NCBI GenBank assembly: GCA_038087875.1
Contig: CM075988.1
Location: forward strand, 19,284,001-19,348,000
Source of the DNA: Malacoraja senta
Lineage: Eukaryota
DNA: 64,000 bases
Reading direction: 5' to 3'
Positions 9,627 to 58,710 of this stretch are shown here, one piece after another; the first letter of the stretch is position 1; each line of letters opens with the position of its first letter. A program made the position numbers and the translations under genes. The notes under the pieces were generated by a model. The model was given only the letters and a program-made list of their open reading frames with translations, was not told the DNA's origin and made no database searches.

Positions 9627-11044
9627 TGGACTGGAAATACCCGAACCATCTCTCCTGATGCTGGTCGTTAGCAATGTGGGTGATATGGAGTGACCAAAAT
9701 TACTTGAAATACAAATGTACATAAAACAATATTTTTTATTTTTATTTGATTCCTTGCTTAAAATAGTTGCCCAAACTGATCGAACTCGGGTCTCTGGCAT
9801 TGTAAGGCAGCAACTCTACCGCTGCGCCACCGTGCCACCTGGTGCAGTCCTCCAGCACTTTGTACTTTTATTCTTTTCATTGCCCTTGCACTCTCTCCTC
9901 CATTACCATCTCCTCTTAAACTCCTCTTTCTGTTTGATCTCTCTGAAAATCTTTTTAAAAGGCTCAGTGGCAACATTCATTTCACAATGTTTCTGCGAGG
10001 ACCCTTGAGGTGTTTCACTGTGTCATTAGTTCTCTATAAAAGCAAGCTGTTATCGAACAAAGTCCCGAGCACTTGGTCAAGTGAATAAAACGACATCTGT
10101 ACGCGGTGTGGGTGTGAATATGAACACAGGCCAGACTCCACATTTCCAATTGAATATGCTGGTCCCACTCACTAACTTATTGTCTTTTATTAAAGCTATT
10201 TAAAAAAAAATGTTTTATTTTGCCTTGACATCCGAAGCTTTGGCCTGGAAAATGAATGGTAAAATTATGCTGTTAGCTCAGCACTGCTGCCATCCCATGA
10301 CCCTGCTCTCTGCCTAGAGGTGGTTAATATTCAGCAGACTATGGCTAATAATCCTCCAGTATTGAATCAGAGTAGCTAATATTTCACTTTAACTCCACAA
10401 CTCCACTACCGCAGGCCAACTCTTCATGGATCATTTTCCTTCATTTTACCTAAACCATAAATAACCTTGCCCTGATTTGTATTACAATTATTCATAGATC
10501 AATCTTACAAATAAGATTCATAGAGCATTACAGCATGGAAACAGGCCCTTTGGCCAAACTCATCCATTTCAACCAAAATGGCCCATTTAAGTTAGTCCTA
10601 TTTGCCTGTATATCTATATAAATAAAAGTCTCATCTTGACCACTTCCTGTCTGCGCTGTATATTGATTTTAGAAAAAAAGCTCCAATATATCGCTATGAT
10701 TTTTGGCCATCTTACTCACAGTCCTCCTCCACTGAGGCAGCCCCAAGGATTTTTACGATCCATGAAAAATAAAAAAAGTAATGAGTGTTTAAAAAATCTT
10801 GAGATCAGCTGATTGGTCCTCTTGCCTGTCAATCACCTCGATGAAGGTAACGCCCCTTCCAGGAGGGGGGGGGGGGCAATAAAACCCCGGATGCCTGGAC
10901 GTGAGTCAGTCACTCTGGAAGATCGTGAGGCAGAGTCCACAAATGTGATTCTATGCTGTGAATCAACTGGAGTGTGAGTCTGCAATGTACTTGCAATAAA
11001 TGATTTGTTGGCCCTTAATGACAATGCAATGAGTTGGTTGGCAA

Positions 11045-11440
11045 TTTGGTGGCCTGCACTCTGCTTGAAATGCTGTGAAATTGAGTTTGGTGGCCTGCAC
11101 TCTGCCTGAAATGCTGTGAAATTTTAGTTTGGTGGCCTGGACTCTGCCTGAAATGCTGCGAAATTGATTTTCGTGGCCTGCCTTTGCCTGAAATGCTGTG
11201 AAATTGAGTTTGGTGGCCTGCATTCTGCCTGAAATGCTGTGAAATTGAGTTTGGTGTCCTGCACTCTGCCTGAAATGCTCTGAAATTGAGTTTGGTGGCC
11301 TGCACTCTGCCTGAAATGCTGTGAAATTGAGTTTGGTGGCCTGCACTCTGCCTGACATGCTCTGAAATTGAGTTTGGTGGCCTGCACTCTGCCTGAAATG
11401 CTGTGAAATTGAGTTTGGTGGCCTGCACTCTGCTTGAAAT
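11045..11440. repeat. 41-bp minisatellite (~10 units) inside Helitron copy 1
   Basis: Unit GCTGTGAAATTGAGTTTGGTGGCCTGCACTCTGCCTGAAAT. Confidence 0.95.
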
Positions 11441-11459
11441 GGAATTTCAACGAATAGCC

Positions 11460-11640
11460 ATGAGTGAACTGCCAGCCCACCAGCCCTGAGTGACTGATCT
11501 GCCAGCCCTCCAGCGCTGAGTGACTGAGCTGCCAGCACACCAGCCCTGAGTGACTGAGCTGCCGGCCCTGAGTGACTGAGCCGCCAGCCCACCAACCCTG
11601 AGTGACTGAGCTGCCAGCCCAACAGGCCTGAGTGACTGAA
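11460..11640. repeat. 30-bp minisatellite (~6 units) inside Helitron copy 1
   Basis: Unit CTGAGTGACTGAGCTGCCAGCCCACCAGCC. Confidence 0.9.
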
Positions 11641-12493
11641 CTAGCCCTCTGGAAACCAGTCCCTTTGGCCCACAACACCCATACTAGTAAGCCCCCCCCC
11701 CCACCACTGGTCACCAATATTGGAATTGGTGGAGAGGTGAAATATTGCGTTGGGGGACCAGCCCTCCCGTGTGAACATGGGTCCCACTTAGTCTAGTACC
11801 CCTCCAAACCTTTCCTGTCCCAGTAAGCATTTCTATATTGCACTACTACTACGGACTGACGCAAAACTGCATTTCGTTGTACCCATACTCAGTATTTGTG
11901 CAATGACATTAAAGTTGAATTGAATTGAATTGAATTGAATTGAATGTGCTGGAGTAACTCAGCAGGTCAGGCAGCATCTTTAGTCTAGTTTAGTTTATTG
12001 TCACGTGTACTGAGTTACAGTGAAAAGCTTTTATTTAGTGCTAACCAGTCAGCAGAAAGACTATACTTGATTACAATCAAGCTGTCCACAGCGCACAGAT
12101 ACATGATAAAGGGAATAATCTGTGGAGGGAATAGATAGGTGACCTTTCGGGTTGGGACCCTTCTTCAGACTTTTAAATGATATTATTTTACCTGCCTCCG
12201 CTACTTCCTTTAGCAGTTTGATCTAGACACCCACCACACACTGTGTTACAAAGTCACCCTCAGGTTCCTATTAAATCTTTCTCCCTGCATCTTAATAGAT
12301 ACATTCACCTGATCTATTTCTCTCATTCTTTAACCAAATGATTAGAGTTTGTTCTGAGGAAACTCTTCGGCAGTCTCTGAAGTCAATGGGAAATATTGCC
12401 CTGGATTCCACCTGTTAGCCAGGACTGTCCCAAACCTGCTCTGGATACAGACAGTGCCTCCAATGATGGATCCTCAGGTCCCCTTGGGATGCC

Positions 12494-13074: not shown

Positions 13075-13207
13075 AAGCTGAATGAAATATAAATTAGAAA
13101 ATGCATTTAACTGATTAAATTGGTAATTTTGTTTGAAGTTTTCTATGAATTGCTCAACTTAATCTTATTGTTGGTACATAGCCAGACACAAACTTAAACA
13201 ATAGCTG

Positions 13208-14088
13208 AGTCTGTTCGTATTGGTGGAAATGTGTCAGCCTCAATAACAATCAGCACAGGAGCACCTCAAGGCTGCGTGCTCAGCCCCCTGCTGTACTCAA
13301 TCTGTACTCATGACTGCGTAGCCGGTCATATTGCGAACTCAATCATCAAGTTCGCTGACGACACCACTTTGTGGGACGTATCACTTATGGAGACGTCAGA
13401 GTATGGAAGTGAGATCGACCGATTGACCAAATGGTGCCAGCACAATAACCTGGCAAACCCAGCACAACACCAGCAAAACCAAGGAAGATTGTGGACTTTG
13501 GAAGGGGTAGGATGGGGACCCACAGTCCCGTTTATATCAACGGGTCGATGGTGGAAAGGGTCAAGAGCTTCAAATTCCTGGGCATGCATATCTCTGAAGA
13601 TCTCTCCTGGTCCCAGAACATTGATGCAATTATAAAGAAAGCACATCAGCGCCTCTACTTCCTGAGAAGATTACGGAGAGTCGGTGTGTCAAAGAGGACT
13701 CTCTCGAACTTCTACAGATGCACAGTAGAGAGAATGCTGACTGGTTGCATCGTGGCTTGTTTCGGCAACTTGAGCGTCCAGGAGCGGAAAAGACTGCAAA
13801 AGGTTGTAAACACTGCCCAGTCCATCATCGGCTCTAACCTCCCTACCATCGAGGCGATCTATCGCAGTCGCTGCCTCAAAGAGGCTGGCAGCTTCATCAA
13901 CGACGCACACCATCCTGGCCACACACTCGTCTCTCCGCTGCCTTCAGGTAGATGGTACAGGAACCTGAAATCTGCAACATCCAGGTTCAGGAATAGCTAC
14001 TTCCCCACAGCCATCAGACTATTAAACCCAACTCAAACAAAAATCTGAATTTTAATAGCCTATTGTACTTTATTTGCTTATTTATGTG

Positions 14089-17780: not shown

Positions 17781-18004
17781 ATATGTATCGATACTAGACT
17801 AAGTGGGACCCGTTGGGTCCCATGTTCCCATGTTCAGGGCAGGTCCCCCAATGCAATATTCCACCTCTCCACCAATTCCAATATTGGTGGCCAGTGGGTG
17901 GGGGGGGGGGGGGGGGCTTTCTGGAGCGTTAGAATGGGTGTTGTGTGCCGAAGGGGCTGGTTTCTAGAGAGCTAGTGTGGACATTGTGGGCCAAATGGGT
18001 TATT

Positions 18005-18262
18005 GGGCTGGCAGCTCAGTCACTCAAGCCTGGTGCACTGGCAGCTCAATCACTCAGGCCTGGTGGGCTGGCAGCTCAGTCACTCTGGCCTAGTGGGCTG
18101 GCAGCTTAGTCACTCAGGCCTGGTGGGCTGGCAGCTCAGTCACTCTGGCCTAGTGGGCTGGCAGCTTAGTCACTCAGGCCTGGTGGGCTGGCAGCTCAGT
18201 CACTCAGGGCTGGCGGGCTGGCAGATCAGTCACTCAGGGCTGGTGGGCTTGCAGTTCACTCA
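18005..18262. repeat. 30-bp minisatellite (~8 units) inside Helitron copy 2
   Basis: GCTGGCAGCTCAGTCACTCAGGCCTGGTGG repeats. Confidence 0.9.
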
Positions 18263-18277
18263 CGGCTATTCCTTTCC

Positions 18278-18880
18278 ATTTCAAGCAGAGTGCAGGCCAC
18301 CAAAGACAATTTCATAGCATTTCAAGCAGAGTGCAGGCCGTCAAATTCAATTTCGTAGCATTTCAAGCAGAGTGCTGGCCGCCAAATTCAATTTCATAGC
18401 ATTTCAGGCAGAGTGCAGGCCGCCAAATTCAATTTCATAACATTTCAGGCAGAGTGCAGGCCGCCAAACTCAATTTCATAGCATTTCATGCAGAGTGCAG
18501 GCTGCCAAACTCAATTTCACAGCATTTCAGGCAGAGTGCAGGCCGCCAAACTCAATTTCATAGCATTTCAGGCAACGTACAGGCCACCATACTCAATTTC
18601 ACAGCATTTCAGGCAGAGTGCAGGCCACCAAACTCAATTTCACAGCATTTCAGGCAGAGTGCAGGTCACCAAATTCAATTTCACACCATTTCTGGCAGAG
18701 TGCAGGCCACCAAACTCAATTTCACGGCATTCCGGGCAGAGTGCAGGCCACCAAACTCAATTTCACGGCATTCTGGGCAGAGTGCAGGCAAGCAAATGCA
18801 ATTTCACAGCATTTCAAGCAGAGTGCAGGCCACCAAATTCAATTTCACAGCATTTCAAGCAGAGTGCAGGCCACCAAATT
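18278..18880. repeat. 41-bp minisatellite (~15 units) inside Helitron copy 2
   Basis: ATTTCAGGCAGAGTGCAGGCCACCAAACTCAATTTCACAGC repeats. Confidence 0.95.
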
Positions 18881-19011
18881 GCTAAACAACTCATTGCATT
18901 GTCATTAAGGGCTTACAAATAATTTATTGCAAGTACATTGCAGACTCACAGTTCAGTTGATTCACAGCTTAGAATCACAGTTGTGGACTCTCCCTCGTGA
19001 TCTTCCAGAGT

Positions 19012-19108
19012 GACTGACTCACGTCCAAGCATCCGGGGTTTTATAGTCCTGCCCCCCTCAGAAGGGGCGTTACCTTCATCGTGGTGATTGACAGGCGAGA
19101 GGACCAAT
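19012..19108 (-). promoter_or_regulatory. Putative Pol II promoter module within the Helitron
   Basis: CCAAT 19104-19108, TGATTGACAG 19085-19094, TATAAAA (-) 19039-19045, Inr-like TCAGTC with its A 30 nt downstream of the TATA start. Confidence 0.5.
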
Positions 19109-19895
19109 CAGCTGTTCTCAAGATTTTTTAAACACTCATAACTTTTTTATTTTTCATCGACCGGAAAAATCCTCGGGACTGCCTCAGCGGAGGAGGACTG
19201 TGAGTAAGATGGTCAAAAATCATAGCGATATATGTTAGCATTTTTCTAAAATCAATATACAGCGCAGACAGGAAGTGGTCAAGATGAGACTTTTAGTCAT
19301 ATAGATATATATATATATTCACACATATGTAGCCAGACGAAACACCAACAGCATTAATTTGGTTTTGCTGCTGCTGTTGACAATCAAGGGAAATGCTTAA
19401 ATGGCTGTGAGACAGTCCTTCAATGGTGCATGACCTACTATTTGAGAGAAGTTTAAACCAAAAGCTACATACATACTGCATGAGTTGTATTGCCACCTGC
19501 TGTTACATATGTATTCCCCACAGTCAAGGGAAATGTTCACCACTGTTTCCAAGTCAACTCAATGGAGTCATTTCTCAAAATAAAACTCGCCGTACAATGC
19601 ATAAAATATGTCTCCTGGACAGCGGCAAAATCAATACTGACAAACGCATTCCAGACTCGCTGGGGAAAAGCTGTGAGCCAGGTTTTACAGATAGGACCGT
19701 GGCGTTTAAATCTCTGCTCTTGCTTTCTTCAGTTCCTGTCATTGTGGAGATTCCTCCTTCGTCCCAGGGAAAACAAGCCCTTCCTGTCATAGAGTCATAG
19801 AGTCATAGTCGTAGACTGGGAGAATCTTTGCAAGGACAACCTCCTCTGCACTCTCTTCCTGCCAGTTACATCCCTCCTGTCATGTGGCAAATAGA

Positions 19896-29245: not shown

Positions 29246-32200
29246 CTATACTTGTAATAATTCTATAAATGCAGACCACGTCAGGTGGAAGTGATCTGGT
29301 TTACCTGCCAGGAGGAGTCTTATCTCTTCTAGGTGTAATGTTTCAAACATATTTGAAATCCACATGTTTATAGTTGGTATTGGAGCGTTTTTCCAGAATT
29401 TTAGGATTAACTTTTTTCCAGTTATTAACCCGTAATCTATTAATTTCTTTTGAAACACATTTAGTTCAGGACTATCTTCCGTTGTTCCGAAGATAATCCA
29501 TTCTGCTTTTGGTATCAGTTTTATTTTAAATAATTTTTTGTACAAAAAACAAATGAGTGTGCTATAGTAGCTTCTTGAGATTGACATTTATCACAAATGG
29601 ATGATATATTTGGGAAAATTTTATTAATTTTAGTTTTTGAATAATATAATCTATGTAAAATTTTAAATTGTATTAAAGTGTGTCTTACATTAATCGAACA
29701 TTTATGCACGTTTAATAAATGTTCATTCCACCTTTCCTTTGAGATTTTAATAGCTAATTCTTGTTCCCAGTCTCTTCTAATACCTTCCGTAGATGGTATT
29801 TCTACATTTAAGATAATATTATACAAATATGATATTAAGTTTGCTGATTCAGATTGTATCTGCATTGCTTCATCCAATACATCTGCTGGGATATTATAAT
29901 GATCTTTTGTATATTTTTTCAAATAGTCACATATTTGAAAATATTTAAAATATTGATTATTTCCCAGTTTATATTTTATTTGTAATTGTTGCAATGATAG
30001 TAATTTTCCAGTTTCATACAAGTCACCGAACGTTTTAATTCCTAGTCTATCCCATTGTATAAAAGATTTGTCTGTAATAGAGGGATTAAACAAAGGGTTA
30101 TTAACTATTGGAGATAAAAGCTATAGATTTCTTAATTTTAAATTTTGTTTTATTTGTTTCCAAGTTCTGATTGTACTATGTATAATTGGGTTTTTGTTAT
30201 AATTTATGTTATTCAGTTTCATTGGTGAGAGGAGGATCGCTCCAATGTTACCAGAGGAGCAGTCCTCTCTCTCCATTACAATCCAGTCCACTTGCTGGGC
30301 AGAGTTGTCCATCAGTTGGATCATATTTTTAATATTTACTGACCAATAATAATACATGAAGTTGGGGAGTGCTAAGCCCCCTAATACTTTAGCTTTGTTC
30401 AAGTGTGTTCTTTGTATTCTATGGGATTTATAGTCCCATATAAAATTAGTAATGTCTGAGTCCAATTTTTTTTTAAACTTCTTTGGTAGGTATATAGGAA
30501 TCGATTGAAATAGGTATAAAATTTGTGGTAAGAAGATCATTTTTATTGCATTTATTCGGCCTATTAAAGACATCGGAAGCGTTTTCCAAAATTTAATTAA
30601 TGTATTTAATTTATTAAGTAGATCATAATTTGCTTTGAACATGCCTTGATATGTTCTGGTGATTTCAATACCCAAGTATTTAAATTTTTCTGTAGCTATT
30701 TTGAAAGGGAATTTTAAAAGATGTGTTGAGTCTTTCGGTTTTATTGACATAATTTCACTTTTATTCCAATTTATTCTGTATCCAGAAAAGGATCCAAAGT
30801 CCTCAATTAGATTTAATATGTTTGGTATAGTAATTTGAGGTTTTGTAATGTACAATAATATATCATCCGCGTATAAAGATATTTTATTATTTGAGTATTT
30901 AGTATTATACCCATGGATATCTGGATGTGTTCTAATTTTTTCTGCTAAAGGTTCAATTATGAGAGCAAACAACTGTGGTGATAATGAGCACCCTTGTCTG
31001 TTTCCCCTTGATAGTTGAAATTTCGATGATAATAAATTATTAGTTAATATTCTAGATGTAGGTTTATTATATAATAATTTAATCCATAAAATAAAATTCC
31101 CACCAGTTGGAATTTTTGTAATACTTTATCCATATAATTCCATTCTACTTGGTCAAATGCTTTTTCAGCATCCAGCGAAATAATTGATAATTCTTGTTCT
31201 TCAATTTTGTGTGAGTGCATTATATTGAGTAGGCGTCTCATATTATTAGATGAATATCTCTTAGGGATAAACCCCGTCTGATCTGGGTTTATTAATTTAC
31301 TAATATATTTACTTAATCTTCTAGCTAATGTTTTCGCTAATATTTTTTTAACTGTATTTAACAATGCTATAGCTCTATATGAACCCGGTTCTTCTATATC
31401 TTTGTCTTTTTTAAGTATTAGTGTGATCGTTGATTCAGCTAATGTATCAGGTAATATTTGTTTTTTAAAAGCATATTGATACATTTTTTGTAACCGTGGT
31501 ATACTTTTGTCATAAAAACTTTTATAAAATTCATTAGTAAATCCATCAGGACCTGGAGTTTTTCCATTCTTTAATGAATTTATTGTGTCTTCTAATTCCT
31601 TGATTGAAATTTGTGCACCCAATTCCTCTTGTTCCTTCAACTCTAACTTTGGAAGATTACAATTATCCAAGAACTCTGTAATTTTATTGGAGTCCGTTGT
31701 CATTTTAGATGTGTACAAGTTCTCATAAAATTGCGCAAATCTTTTATTAATATCCTTCGGTATGGTTAGTAATTCCCCTCTATCTGATTTAATCTTTTGG
31801 ATCGTATGTTCTTTTTCTCGTTTTTTTAGCTGACAAGCTAAAAGTTTATGCGGTTTATCCCCAAATTCAAAGTGTTCCTGTTTTGTAATTTGGAAAAGTC
31901 TTATAAGTTTGGCTGATAATAGTTTATTTAATTTAAATTTCAAAATTATTATTTTATTATGTTTATCTATTGATGGATCTTTAGCATTATCTATATCCAT
32001 TTGTCTAATACGTTCTTCTAACTGTCTTTGTTTATTCTTATTCTTATTATTTTGAAAAGCTTGGTATGAGATTATAACACCTCTAATAAATGCTTTAAAA
32101 GATTCCCATAGTAAAGTAGGCGATATATCTGGAGTGTCATTTATTTCAAAAAAGACGTCCATTTGTTCTTTTAAATATATACTCGCTTGCGGATCTTTTA

Positions 32201-32979
32201 GGATTTGAGAATTGAATCTCCAAAACGATTTATTCTTAGACATTCCTTCCAGTTTTAAAAAGAAAGTTAGTGGTGAATGGTCTGAAATCGAATTTGTTGG
32301 GTTCACAGTGTGAGGGATTCATTTTGTATCCACCAGGAAATAATCTATACGTGAGTATGTTTTGTGTACCATTGAATAAAATGAGTATTCCCTGCCAGTC
32401 GGATTAGCAATTCTCCAAACATCTGTTATATTGGTATTGTTTATATACGTATTTAAAAGTTCACTAGTTTTAGATTTTGTATTCCCTCTCTGTTTTTGGC
32501 TTGATTTGTCTAAATACAGATCTAAAACACAGTTAAAGTCTCCTCCTATTATAACATTTTGATAATTAAATTCTGCGATTATGTTCAGAATTTTATTGAA
32601 AAAATGAGGATTGTCAAAGTTAGGCACGTATATATTTACCAAGGTAATTGGAGTATCATGAATTTCTCCGGTAACTATCAAATATCTCCCTTCAATGTCT
32701 GTTATGGTATTCTTTGCTTTGAATGGTATATCTTTTCTAATAATGATTGATGTACCTCTAGATTTCGAAGTATATGAAGAATGATATATTTGACCATTTC
32801 GCCCTCAACCTAGCTTGATCCTGGGATTTTAGATGAGTTTCTTGTAAGAAAATGATGTCAGAATTGTACAGTTTCAGCTGAGCTAATATCTTACCCCTTT
32901 TAATAGGTTCATTAATACCTCTTATATTCCAACTGCAGAATGAGACTCCTCCTAGGTTCTTTTGTTTAACATCTTGCAT
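29246..32979 (-). pseudogene. L1 ORF2 (APE endonuclease, RT, CCHC), multiple frameshifts
   Basis: SWNIRG..FLQETH, GGDFN, SRIDY, SDH; KTPGPDG, LDAEKAFD, RQGCSLSP, LYADD; CDKC..HSFVFC. Confidence 0.92.
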
Positions 32980-47613: not shown

Positions 47614-47813
47614 NNNNNNNNNNNNNNNNNNNNNNNNNNNNNNNNNNNNNNNNNNNNNNNNNNNNNNNNNNNNNNNNNNNNNNNNNNNNNNNNNNNNNNN
47701 NNNNNNNNNNNNNNNNNNNNNNNNNNNNNNNNNNNNNNNNNNNNNNNNNNNNNNNNNNNNNNNNNNNNNNNNNNNNNNNNNNNNNNNNNNNNNNNNNNNN
47801 NNNNNNNNNNNNN
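47614..47813. other. Assembly gap (200 N)
   Basis: Run of N. Confidence 1.
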
Positions 47814-48025
47814 CTGTATCTCAGTACTTGTGCCAATAATAAAGCAATACCAATACCAAGTGGACGTAAGCACCAATCAGTTCAATAACATCTGCCTGTA
47901 GAACATATCTGCCCAGTTTTACCTCCTGAATCCAGTCCAAAGCAATGTTAAGAATGGGTAATGAGTTGATATTTTAATTAGTTCATGAGTTAATGGGCTA
48001 ATACGTTAATCATTGAGTTAATGGG

Positions 48026-48602
48026 TGTAGATTAGTGTCACTCATCTTATGAGTCATGCTTTTGTAGTTACGCCCACTAGCTTTACAGTAACCCTCCCTG
48101 CCTGGTTCCCGCATTATTAGAAAAACGTGCTAGCATGAAGTTACCTGTGCTATGTCGTTAATAAAGTCTTGGACCTTTATCATGGTGTAAGGCTTCAGTT
48201 ATTTGGACAGCCGCAACACAACATGGTGTCAGAAGTGGGATATGAACCCACGCCTCCAATTGGTCTCTATTGCACACGTGCTGGTCGTGTTTGTAAGCCG
48301 GTTGTAAAGTACCCGGACTATGTTTGACTTTCCTCCAGTTTATTATCAATTGCTATGCATGCCTTACTTAGTTAATGGGTTGTTGATTCTTTAAGAGGGA
48401 GGATGTAGATCAGTGTCACTCATGTTATGAGTCATGCTTTTGTAGTTACGCCCATTAGATTTACAGTAACCCTCCCTGCCTGGTACCCGCATTATTAGAA
48501 AAACATGCTAGCATGAAGTTACCTGTGCTATGTCATTAATAAAGTATTTGGACCTTTATCATGGTGTGAGGCTTCAGTTATTTGGACAGCCGCAACACAA
48601 CA
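48026..48602 (+). mobile_element. TRIM-like miniature LTR retrotransposon
   Basis: LTRs 48026-48223 and 48404-48602 (TG...CA, ~10 differences), PBS 48224-48241, PPT AAGAGGGAGGA 48393-48403, TSD ATGGG/ATGAG. Confidence 0.92.
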
Positions 48603-48832
48603 ATGAGGAAAGGTATTGAGTTAATGTTAATTAATGGCAATGGGTTAATTAGTTATTGGGTTATTAAGTTAATAAGTTAATGATCAATGAGTTAATGAGA
48701 AATGTGTTAATGAGAAATGAGTTAGGAATATAAACTGTTACATTACCACTGCAGTTGAAGAATGTGGCTCTCCACCCACTACAAGGGCAGTTAAGGATGG
48801 CAAACAATATCAGGTCTTGTCAGCACAATCCT

Positions 48833-55719: not shown

Positions 55720-58710
55720 AGACAAATCCAGGGCAAAAATCAAAAAGGGCCACTTTTCAACATAATTGTATAAGGGGTAAGAGTGTTGTAAAAACAAGCC
55801 TGAAGGCTTTGTGTCTCAATGCAAGGAGCATTCGTAATAAGGTGGATGAGTTCAATGTGCTGATAGCTATTAATGACTATGATATAGTTGGGATCACGGA
55901 GACATGGCTCCAGGGTAACCAAGGCTGGGAGCTGAACATCCAGGGATATTCAATATTCAGGAGGGATAGACAGAAAGGGAAAGGAGGTGGGGTAGCGTTG
56001 CTGGTTAGAGAGCAGATTAACGCAATAGAAAGGAAGGACATTAGCTTGGAGGATGTGGAATCGATATGGGTAGAGCTGCGAAACACTAAGGGGCAGAAAA
56101 CGCTACTGGGAGTTGTGTACAGGCCACCTAACAGTAGTAGTGGAGTTGGGGATGGCATCAAACAGGAAATTGGAAATGCGTGCAACAAAGGTAAAACAGT
56201 TATAATGGGTGACTTCAATCTACTTATAGATTGGGTGAATCAAATTGGCAAGGGTGCTGAGGAAGAGGATTTCTTGGAATGTATGCGGGATAGTTTTCTA
56301 AACCACCATGTAGAGGAACCAACAAGAGAGCAGGCTATTCTAGATTGGGTATTGAGTAATGAGGAAGGGTTAGTTAGCAGTCTTGTTGTGCGTGGCCCCT
56401 TGGGCAAGAGTGACCATAATATGGTTGAGTTCTTCATTAGGATGGAGAGTGACATTGTTAATTCAGAAACAAGGGTCCTGAACTTAAAGAAAGGTAACTT
56501 TGAGGGTATGAGAAGTGAATTGGCCAAGATAGACTAGCAATTGATTCTTAATGGGTTGACGGTAGATATGCAATGGAAGGCATTTAAAGACTGCATGGAT
56601 GAACTACAACAATTGTTCATCCCAGTTTGCGAAAAAAATAAATCAAGAAAAGTAGTGCATCCATGGATAACAAGGAAAATCAGGGATAGTATCAAAACAA
56701 AAGATGAAGCGTAGAAATTAGCCAGATAAAGCAGCCTACCAGAGGACTGGGAGAAATTCAGTCCTGCAGAGGAGAACAAAGGGCTTAATTAGGAAAGGGA
56801 AAATAGATTATGAAAGAAAACTGGCAGGGAACATAAAAACTGACTGCAAAAGCTTTTATAGATATGTGAAGAGAAAAAGATCAATTAAAACAAATGTAGG
56901 TCCCTTGCAGTCAGAAACAGGTGAATTGATCATGGGGAACAAGGACATGGCAGACCAATTGAAAAACTACTTTGGTTCTGTCTTCACTGAGGAAGACATA
57001 AATAATCTGCCGGAAATAGCAGGGGACCGGGGGTCAAATGAGATGGAGGAACAGAGTGCAATCCAGGTTAGCCGGGAAGTGGTGTTAGGTAAATTGAATA
57101 GATTAAAGGCCGATAAATCCCCAGGGCCAGATAGGCTGCGTCCCAGAGTACTTAAGGAAGTAGCCCAGAAATTGTGGATGCATTGGTGATAATTTTTCAA
57201 AACTCTTTAGATTCTGGAGTAGTTCCTGAGGATTGGAGGGTAGCTAATGTAACTCCACTTTTTAAAAAGGGAGGGAGAGAGAAAACGGGGAATTACTGAC
57301 CAGTTAGTCTAACGTCGGTAGTGGGGAAACTGCTAGAATCAGTTATTAAAGATGGCATAGCAGCACATTTGGAAATTGGTGAAATCAATCGACAAAGTCA
57401 GCATGCATTTATGAAAGGTAAATCATGTCTGACGAATCTTATAAAAATTTTCGAGGATGTAACTAGTAGAGTGGATAAGGGAGAACCAGTGGATGTGTTA
57501 TATCTGGGCTTTCAAAAGGCTTTCGACAACGTCCCACATAAGAGATTAGTATACAAACTTAAAGCACACGGTATTGGGGATTCAGTATTGATGTGGATAG
57601 AGAACTGGCTGGCAGACAGGAAGCAAAGAGTAGGAGTAAACGGGTCCTTTTCACAATGGCAGGCAGTGACTAGTGGGGTACCGCAAGGCTCAGTGCTGGG
57701 ACCCCAGCTATTTACGATATATATTAATGATTTGGACGAGGGAATTGAATGCAACATCTCCAAGTTTGCGGATGACACGAAGCTGGGGGGCAGTGTTAGC
57801 TGTGAGGAGGATGCTCAGAGGCTGCAAGGTGACTTGGATAGGCTGGGTGAGTGGGCAAATGCATGGCAGATGCAGTATAATGTGGATAAATGTGAGGTTA
57901 TCCACTTTGGTGCCAAAAACAGGAAAGTAGACTATTATCTGAATGGTGGCCGATTAGGAAAAGGGGAGATGCAACGAGACCTGGGTGTCATGGTACACCA
58001 GTCATTAAAAGTAGGCATGCAGGTGCAGCAGGCAGTGAAGAAGGCGAATGGTATGTTAGCATTCATAGCAAAAGGATTTGAGTATAGGAGCAGGGAGGTT
58101 CTACTGCAGTTGTACAGGGTCTTGGTGAGACCACACCTGGAGTATTGCGTACAGTTTTGGTCTCCTAATCTGAGGAAAGACATTCTTGCCATGGAGGGAG
58201 TACAGAGAAGATTCACCAGACTGATTCCTGGGATGTCAGGACTTTCATAAGAAGAAAGACTGGATAGACTCGGTTTGTACTCGCTAGAATTTAGAAGATT
58301 GAGGGGGGATCTTATAGAAACGTACAAAATTCTTAAGGGGTTGGACAGGCTAGATGCAGGAAGATTGTTCCTGATGTTGGGGAAGTCCAGAACAAGGGGT
58401 CACAGTTTAAGGATAAGGGGGAAATCTTTTAGGACCGAGATGAGGAAAACATTTTTCACACAGAGAGTGGTGAATCTCTGGAATTCTCTCCCACAGAAGG
58501 TAGTTGAGGCCAGTTCATTGGCTATATTTAAGAGGGAGTTAGATGTGGCCCTTGTGGCTAAAGGGATCAGGGGGTATGGAGAGAAAGCAGGTACAGGATA
58601 CTGAGTTGGATGATCAGCCATGATCATATCGAATGGCGGTGCAGGCTCGAAGGGTCGAATGGCCTACTCCTGCACCTATTTTCTATGTTTCTATCTTTCT
58701 ATGTTTCTAT
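55720..58710 (+). mobile_element. CR1 LINE with near-complete ORF2, 5' truncated (start approximate)
   Basis: EN + RT, 3'UTR and (TTTCTATG)n tail. Confidence 0.92.
55800..58604 (+). pseudogene. CR1 ORF2 (APE endonuclease + RT) with stops and frameshifts
   Basis: CLNARSIRNK, GITETW, MGDFN, SDHN; KSPGPD, SGVPQGSVLGP, KFADD. Confidence 0.92.

Follow-up and report, generated by a model that had tools for sequence, protein, structure and literature searches.

A 577-bp mini-element with two LTRs, a PBS and a PPT occupies positions 48026..48602 on the plus strand of the window, the 64,000-nt stretch of the Malacoraja senta genome analysed here. Its internal region is a join of two pieces, a copy of the primer tRNA and a Gypsy pol tail that runs on into 3′ untranslated sequence and the PPT, and not a neutral TRIM spacer. 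In our best reading, the element records, as a fossil in the germline, an event of delayed second-strand transfer and is not an amplified TRIM family. It is probably essentially a one-off that arose when a member of a multicopy Gypsy family was reverse-transcribed wrongly, was integrated in the germline and has been essentially inert since. This reading is supported by a tRNA match that includes the CCA, extends 22 nt past the PBS and ends exactly at the deletion junction, as well as by the rarity of the join, the identity of the tail as a Gypsy pol C-terminus, and the long tRNA copies at 16 metagenome loci. Such primer read-through has so far been described mainly in defective HIV.

The 5′ LTR (48026..48223, 198 bp) and the 3′ LTR (48404..48602, 199 bp), both on the plus strand like all parts of the element given below, begin with TG, end with CA, and carry AATAAA at 48160 and 48538, respectively. 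They agree in 189 of 199 columns (95.0%), with six transitions, three transversions and one gap, and their K2P divergence is 4.7%. Between them lie 180 bp (48224–48403), which start with the 18-nt PBS (48224..48241) and end with a PPT of 11 purines (48393..48403) adjoining the 3′ LTR; contigs join 48398–48403 to the LTR start in all three DNA-type runs from related organisms (X1, X2 and X9). An earlier sequence-only reading had described just this layout, with two TG..CA LTRs of about 198 bp and about 95% identity around 180 bp holding a PBS and a PPT, and it is confirmed. The 5-bp TSD with one mismatch reported there is likewise present, as the flanking 5-mers ATGGG (48021..48025) and ATGAG (48603..48607) match at 4/5 positions and form a probable TSD. 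Because the insertion is hosted by a degenerate 8-bp repeat (unstranded; left half 47958..48021, right half 48639–48724), in which a 4/5 match arises by chance in 7.4% of cases (430/5776 pairs) compared with 1.8% window-wide, the TSD is weak evidence by itself. The 64-kb window holds one copy of the element.

The 18-nt PBS exactly complements the 3′ terminus of tRNA-Leu(CAA) plus CCA, as judged by eye against the table in PMC10359600, and it is the single exact match in the window. The PBS of the sequence-only reading is therefore exact over these 18 nt, but the tRNA match behind the 5′ LTR is truly 40 nt long. The 22 nt beyond the canonical site (48242..48263) comprise the T loop, T stem and variable arm of the primer, as delimited by tRNA identity and contig ends. 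Read as minus strand, the 35 bases that end at 48224 match human tRNA-Leu-CAA-2-1 at 33 of 35 positions (by eye, same table of PMC10359600), the two mismatches lying opposite A58 (48242) and G57 (48243). Five further bases span the variable arm, and over the 40 nt the identity with one metagenome locus, L021, is 37/40. The Rfam tRNA model aligns the T arm below threshold (19.7 bits, E=0.37); at gathering scores Rfam gave no matches in the window, and a scan to E=10 placed a tRNA match only at 48227–48318, outside both LTRs. The CCA points to a mature tRNA as the template. In the related runs, loose contig ends behind 48263 go on as the same tRNA (29 contigs in X1 and 36 in X9). Coral RNA runs (share 0.03) were considered as carriers of the element and rejected, as the one examined matches the 35-nt tRNA part only: a contig of run X17 is identical to 48224–48258, including AT at positions 19–20 of the copy, with unrelated sequence on either side. 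Since only the tRNA part matches, the contig, which was selected for that match, does not represent the element.

At 48261..48263, two to three bases are common to the tRNA copy and the following piece, a junction placed by contig ends and starts. The frame from 48261 runs for 21 codons to a stop at 48325–48327, and the segment 48261..48327 is assigned to Gypsy pol as its final 21 codons plus stop, the basic C-terminal tail of integrase. An HMM trained on the last 30 residues of 120 of 303 Gypsy proteins ranks this frame first (E=0.001, with the next at 0.81) when the window is divided into 2750 six-frame fragments, and its score was reached by none of 2000 shuffles (1908 scored). A [TS]RxGR motif was found in 43 of the 120 Gypsy pol proteins, within the last 45 residues and 12–30 residues from the end; here, TRxGR stands 17 residues from the end. 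Among the ten tail variants listed, six are synonymous third-position changes (P=0.08), a weak sign of past coding constraint. Pfam gave no match for the 33-aa internal frame. A profile-free protein search with the tail gave four matches, among which P0001 and P0003 cover the translated tRNA part only and P0002 is a repeat; a further protein search returned one candidate and no matches, and tblastn against the 29 metagenome loci found none. The earlier statement that the element has no ORF overlooked these 21 codons and stop. Nothing but the C-terminal tail is left of pol, the gag, protease, RT, RNase H and integrase core being missing. A 3′ untranslated remnant (48328..48392) leads to the PPT, and several related contigs have about nine additional bases near 48378.

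The proposed course of events starts from a parent in a multicopy Gypsy family of the K02A2.6/Mag-like type. Starting from the PPT, plus-strand synthesis would have proceeded through the LTR and into the tRNA-Leu(CAA) still attached, copying its 18 PBS bases; instead of stopping at m1A58, RT would have placed an A there and gone on, so that about 40 nt of the primer were copied. The extended end, its PBS match lost, may then have annealed through a match of two to three bases to the minus strand, at a point some 140 nt short of the 3′ LTR. Completion would have yielded LTR, tRNA copy, pol tail, PPT and LTR in this order, with correct ends, and the parent's integrase would have inserted the product. 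Plus-strand strong-stop DNA normally terminates at m1A58 (PMC8599865), and misincorporation occurs when RT goes past m1A (PMC4787781). We infer the sequence in which these steps occurred, that the A is owed to m1A, and that there was no later spread; the T at position 20 may derive from CpG decay or from a second RT error.

A close counterpart is found in HIV-1, where 44 sequences attributed to delayed second-strand transfer contain tRNA inserts of 7–54 nt at the deletion junction, and 5/44 are changed at position 58 (PMC12657518). This proportion is close to that of A at position 19 in the metagenome loci (3/16). Like those defective proviruses, the skate element has intact LTRs and a PBS followed by primer tRNA that sets the deletion junction: more than 18 nt of the primer copy, with CCA, stand directly behind the 5′ LTR (40 nt), and the end of the copy at 48263 defines the junction into the pol tail at 48261. 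Unlike HIV-1, it is a Gypsy derivative that uses tRNA-Leu(CAA) and is fixed in a fish germline, apparently common to related species; it has 22 extra nt and has lost almost the whole inside.

How common the short form is in related genomes was judged by comparing the left flank, the 5′ LTR and the inside with 4 of 23 listed runs. Each of 14 runs from eight organisms contains 40–43% of the element's words, and no run reaches half. The LTR is multicopy in X1, X2 and X9, where 1082, 1101 and 1282 contigs aligned, respectively, and its family is therefore large. Summed contig depth at 48261 is 112.6, 180 and 208 in these three runs, against 1964, 11571 and 22264 at 48273, twelve bases downstream, such that the junction reaches 5.7%, 1.6% and 0.9% of the downstream depth, contig depth being a rough proxy and not equal to copy number. 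The tRNA-like contigs stop at 48263 and the pol-tail contigs start at 48261, among them 26 contigs of X9 with other, shared upstream letters, and records X1-7, X9-24 and X9-25 likewise begin at 48261 with differing upstream letters. A normal parent should give many departures at 48241, the end of a normal 18-nt PBS; one record among those listed (X1 record 5) leaves the window sequence exactly there, and none does so among the loose-end rows listed. No full-length parent element was retrieved among the related-run contigs. As separate observations on the LTR, several X9 contigs skip 61–135 bases within window positions 48060–48221, i.e., they are internally deleted or related LTR subfamilies, and a variant LTR end (48204–48214) is present in all three runs.

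These depths speak against the dispersed family of ~580-bp copies that had been proposed, as the LTR is abundant and the junction stays at 0.9–5.7% of pol-tail depth in 3/3 DNA-type runs. The outcome that the sequence-only reading had itself named as overturning it, a unique copy whose relatives all carry full gag-pol internals, is largely matched: the LTR family is large, junction depth is low, and most pol tails carry other upstream sequence. A few further copies with the junction may exist. On the other hand, that reading was right to describe the element as non-autonomous, Gypsy-related, primed by tRNA-Leu, and TRIM-like in shape and size.

A related hypothesis, which we consider possible but rather unlikely, is that the birth by read-through was followed by slight spread in trans, giving a low-copy TRIM subfamily. 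The element has kept both LTRs, a perfect PBS and the PPT, and could accordingly be transcribed, co-packaged and copied, and the summed depth over 48261 amounts, in each run, to about 4–5 single-copy contigs. X1 record 6 spans the junction and extends beyond it by more than 31 letters in both directions; it has 19 differences in 119 (84% identical) and comes from a run in which the orthologous flank was not seen, while a C at 48261 occurs in two contigs of X1 and one of X2. Taken with X2 records 15 and 16, in which other LTRs are followed by a 40-nt copy, X1 record 6 and the two differing X1 contigs indicate that there is more than one instance of the join or of the long copy. The junction nevertheless amounts to at most 1–6% of pol-tail depth, part of which may come from contigs that merely end at 48263, and a recurrent hotspot would look alike. 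In addition, the leader and gag, in which packaging signals usually lie, are gone.

The insertion itself can be followed outside this genome. One X2 contig (record 10) and one X9 contig (record 18) extend from the left flank into the LTR, with 14 differences, 11 gap letters, and 24–25 letters on the LTR side, fewer than the 31 otherwise applied as a rule; in X1, no such contig was seen. This suggests that the same insertion is present in two other species. Many LTR ends with other flanks occur in the related runs, where their TSDs are unreadable. The two flank contigs also bear on the idea, which we regard as very improbable, that reads from a tRNA gene, an LTR and a pol gene were joined by the assembler near a scaffold gap. 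Such an artefact would fit the 200-N gap located 212 bp upstream and the fact that no run has more than 43% of the element's words, but it is opposed by two other organisms' contigs that run from the flank into the LTR, by contigs of other organisms that cross the junction, by LTRs that are 5% apart, and by the CCA, which tRNA genes generally lack. The gap lies at 47614–47813, and the ~45 bp that follow (47814–47859) are the end of a high-copy repeat in X1, X2 and X9.

Primer read-through copies recur at other loci. Metagenomes were scanned with a 34-nt motif in which positions 19–20 were free, a design biased to long copies that speaks to recurrence and not to frequency. The scan retrieved 29 loci, none with a tRNA gene, which collapse to 16 independent insertions with tRNA-Leu(CAA) copies of 34–57 nt. 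In 14 of these 16 the copy directly follows CA; L007 (after AG) and L026 (after AT) have no preceding CA and were left out of the LTR-linked count. Positions 19–20 read TC in 13 loci, AC in two and AT in one, position 19 being only T (13) or A (3) and never G or C. As no TT was found beside the 13 TC loci, CpG decay is unsupported for position 20. The upstream LTR-like blocks of ~180–260 bp form three families, each at different sites, and within each family the copy length and the downstream sequence differ per insertion. Gypsy gag/pol is joined to a long tRNA copy in two loci, namely L021, where RT, RNase H and integrase follow, and L006, where integrase follows. Within 3 kb, none of the 29 loci showed a second LTR, short LTR-end pieces being present in L010, L014 and L016. 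The window LTR has no match in them past its last bases and the PBS, and viral contigs gave 0 matches for the long PBS and 0 for the LTR end. In L010 and L014, the sequence jumps to the final LTR bases and then closes with a 4/5 duplication. These two are minimal insertions, with one LTR, a tRNA copy of 50 or 36 nt, and the last 14–17 LTR bases, and both flank duplications differ at the fifth base only; L016 has no TSD. A tandem pair of tRNA-Leu copies stands behind one LTR at L005:444-540.

The loci also bear on a reading that we consider quite improbable, in which the parent had a naturally long tRNA-complementary leader and the skate copy is an ordinary internal deletion, by minus-strand template switch or DNA-level loss, that starts there by chance. 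At L017, a 34-nt tRNA-Leu(CAA) match that follows CA is succeeded, 62 bp further on, by a 990-aa open Copia-type frame (L017:3-2972, minus strand; gag, protease-like, integrase, SH3 and RVT_2), and the locus may represent a Copia element whose leucine PBS is long by nature; the same PBS thus occurs both there and in L021, with its RT–RNase H–integrase order. The 40 nt behind other LTRs in X2 records 15 and 16 and the lack of loose ends at 48241 among the rows listed would also agree with a long leader. However, X1 record 5 stops at 18 nt, copy length and downstream sequence vary per insertion in the three metagenome LTR families, the breakpoint falls where the tRNA copy ends, and the passage of RT over a modified base is marked by the A at position 19.

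In its architecture, the element is like the TRIMs of Gao et al. (2016; PMC4717578), which are shorter than 1.5 kb and have two LTRs, a PBS, a PPT and a 5-bp TSD. It is 577 bp long (<1,500 bp) and free of gaps, with LTRs, PBS and PPT, and, measured against the BLASTX threshold of E<1e-5 for protein content, it has no Pfam match and a 21-codon tail at E=0.001 only. It also resembles OsajRetroS10, which arose from OsajLTRA10 by an internal deletion whose breakpoint closely follows the PBS, and an origin of TRIMs from internal deletions was already proposed by Gao et al. (PMC4717578). The TRIMs of that study are amplified families, whereas the skate short form is a small minority; moreover, the breakpoint described there uses a duplicated 25-bp sequence, and the accessible portion of the paper notes no tRNA read-through. 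The earlier view that TRIMs are known mostly from plants and some invertebrates is outdated, as they are present in zebrafish, coelacanth, sterlet and paddlefish (PMC10886601). Helenus, Ajax and Cassandra TRIMp3 (Kojima, 2024; PMC10886601) are similarly short and non-autonomous, contain tRNA-derived sequence and occur in fishes; they too are Gypsy-dependent, and some are tRNA-Leu-primed. In TRIMp3, both LTRs contain the small-RNA sequence, which serves there as a Pol III promoter, and animal TSDs are 4 bp (PMC10886601), whereas the skate element has a single antisense tRNA piece at the PBS and no tRNA-like match in the LTRs. Membership in Helenus or TRIMp3 was rejected on the ground that the Rfam scan to E=10 gave no tRNA match within either LTR. 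With the K02A2.6-like Gypsy elements of aquatic animals, which we take to be of the Mag type, the element shares the PBS, short TG..CA LTRs and a basic TRxGR..P..DY/FV pol tail; unlike them, it is without gag, protease, RT, RNase H and integrase core.

As a TRIM, the element would be a modest find, since fish TRIMs are already in print. As a product of primer read-through, it shows an HIV-1 error class in an endogenous Gypsy element, offers for some mini-LTR elements a concrete origin that can be tested by looking for tRNA sequence longer than 18 nt behind the LTR, and provides natural evidence on the stopping points of RT on a modified primer. It also calls for caution, in that a lone short two-LTR element should not be called a TRIM family until junction-bearing copies have been counted. 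Older work with retrovirus vectors recorded deletions with insertions. In the openly accessible texts searched, PMC7472051 among them, no earlier description was found of retrotransposon products of primer read-through, nor of such elements in sharks or skates. A bolder and at present doubtful proposal is that read-through is a recurrent route to TRIM-sized Gypsy derivatives in animal germlines and founded a small skate TRIM subfamily. If this were true, such elements would constitute a genomic fossil record of tRNA modification, in which the base at position 19 and the stops of the copies record m1A58 and other primer marks in ancient germ cells.

Several other repeats were found in the window. 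A CR1-type LINE with endonuclease and RT lies at 55722–58250 (plus strand); the nearest named relatives of its RT are from Leucoraja (89–90%) and Mobula (88%), over 59–69% of the query, and these skates and rays bear out the earlier assignment of the DNA to a cartilaginous fish. A degraded LINE with endonuclease, RT and zf-RVT occupies 29521–32804 (minus strand) within a low-GC (29–33%) block, and a non-LTR remnant at 13198–14048 (plus strand) has RT followed by an ALKBH8_N match. Finally, 10609–11798 and 17792–19309 form an inverted duplication, ~77–91% identical by segment, with 41-bp and 30-bp minisatellite arrays.
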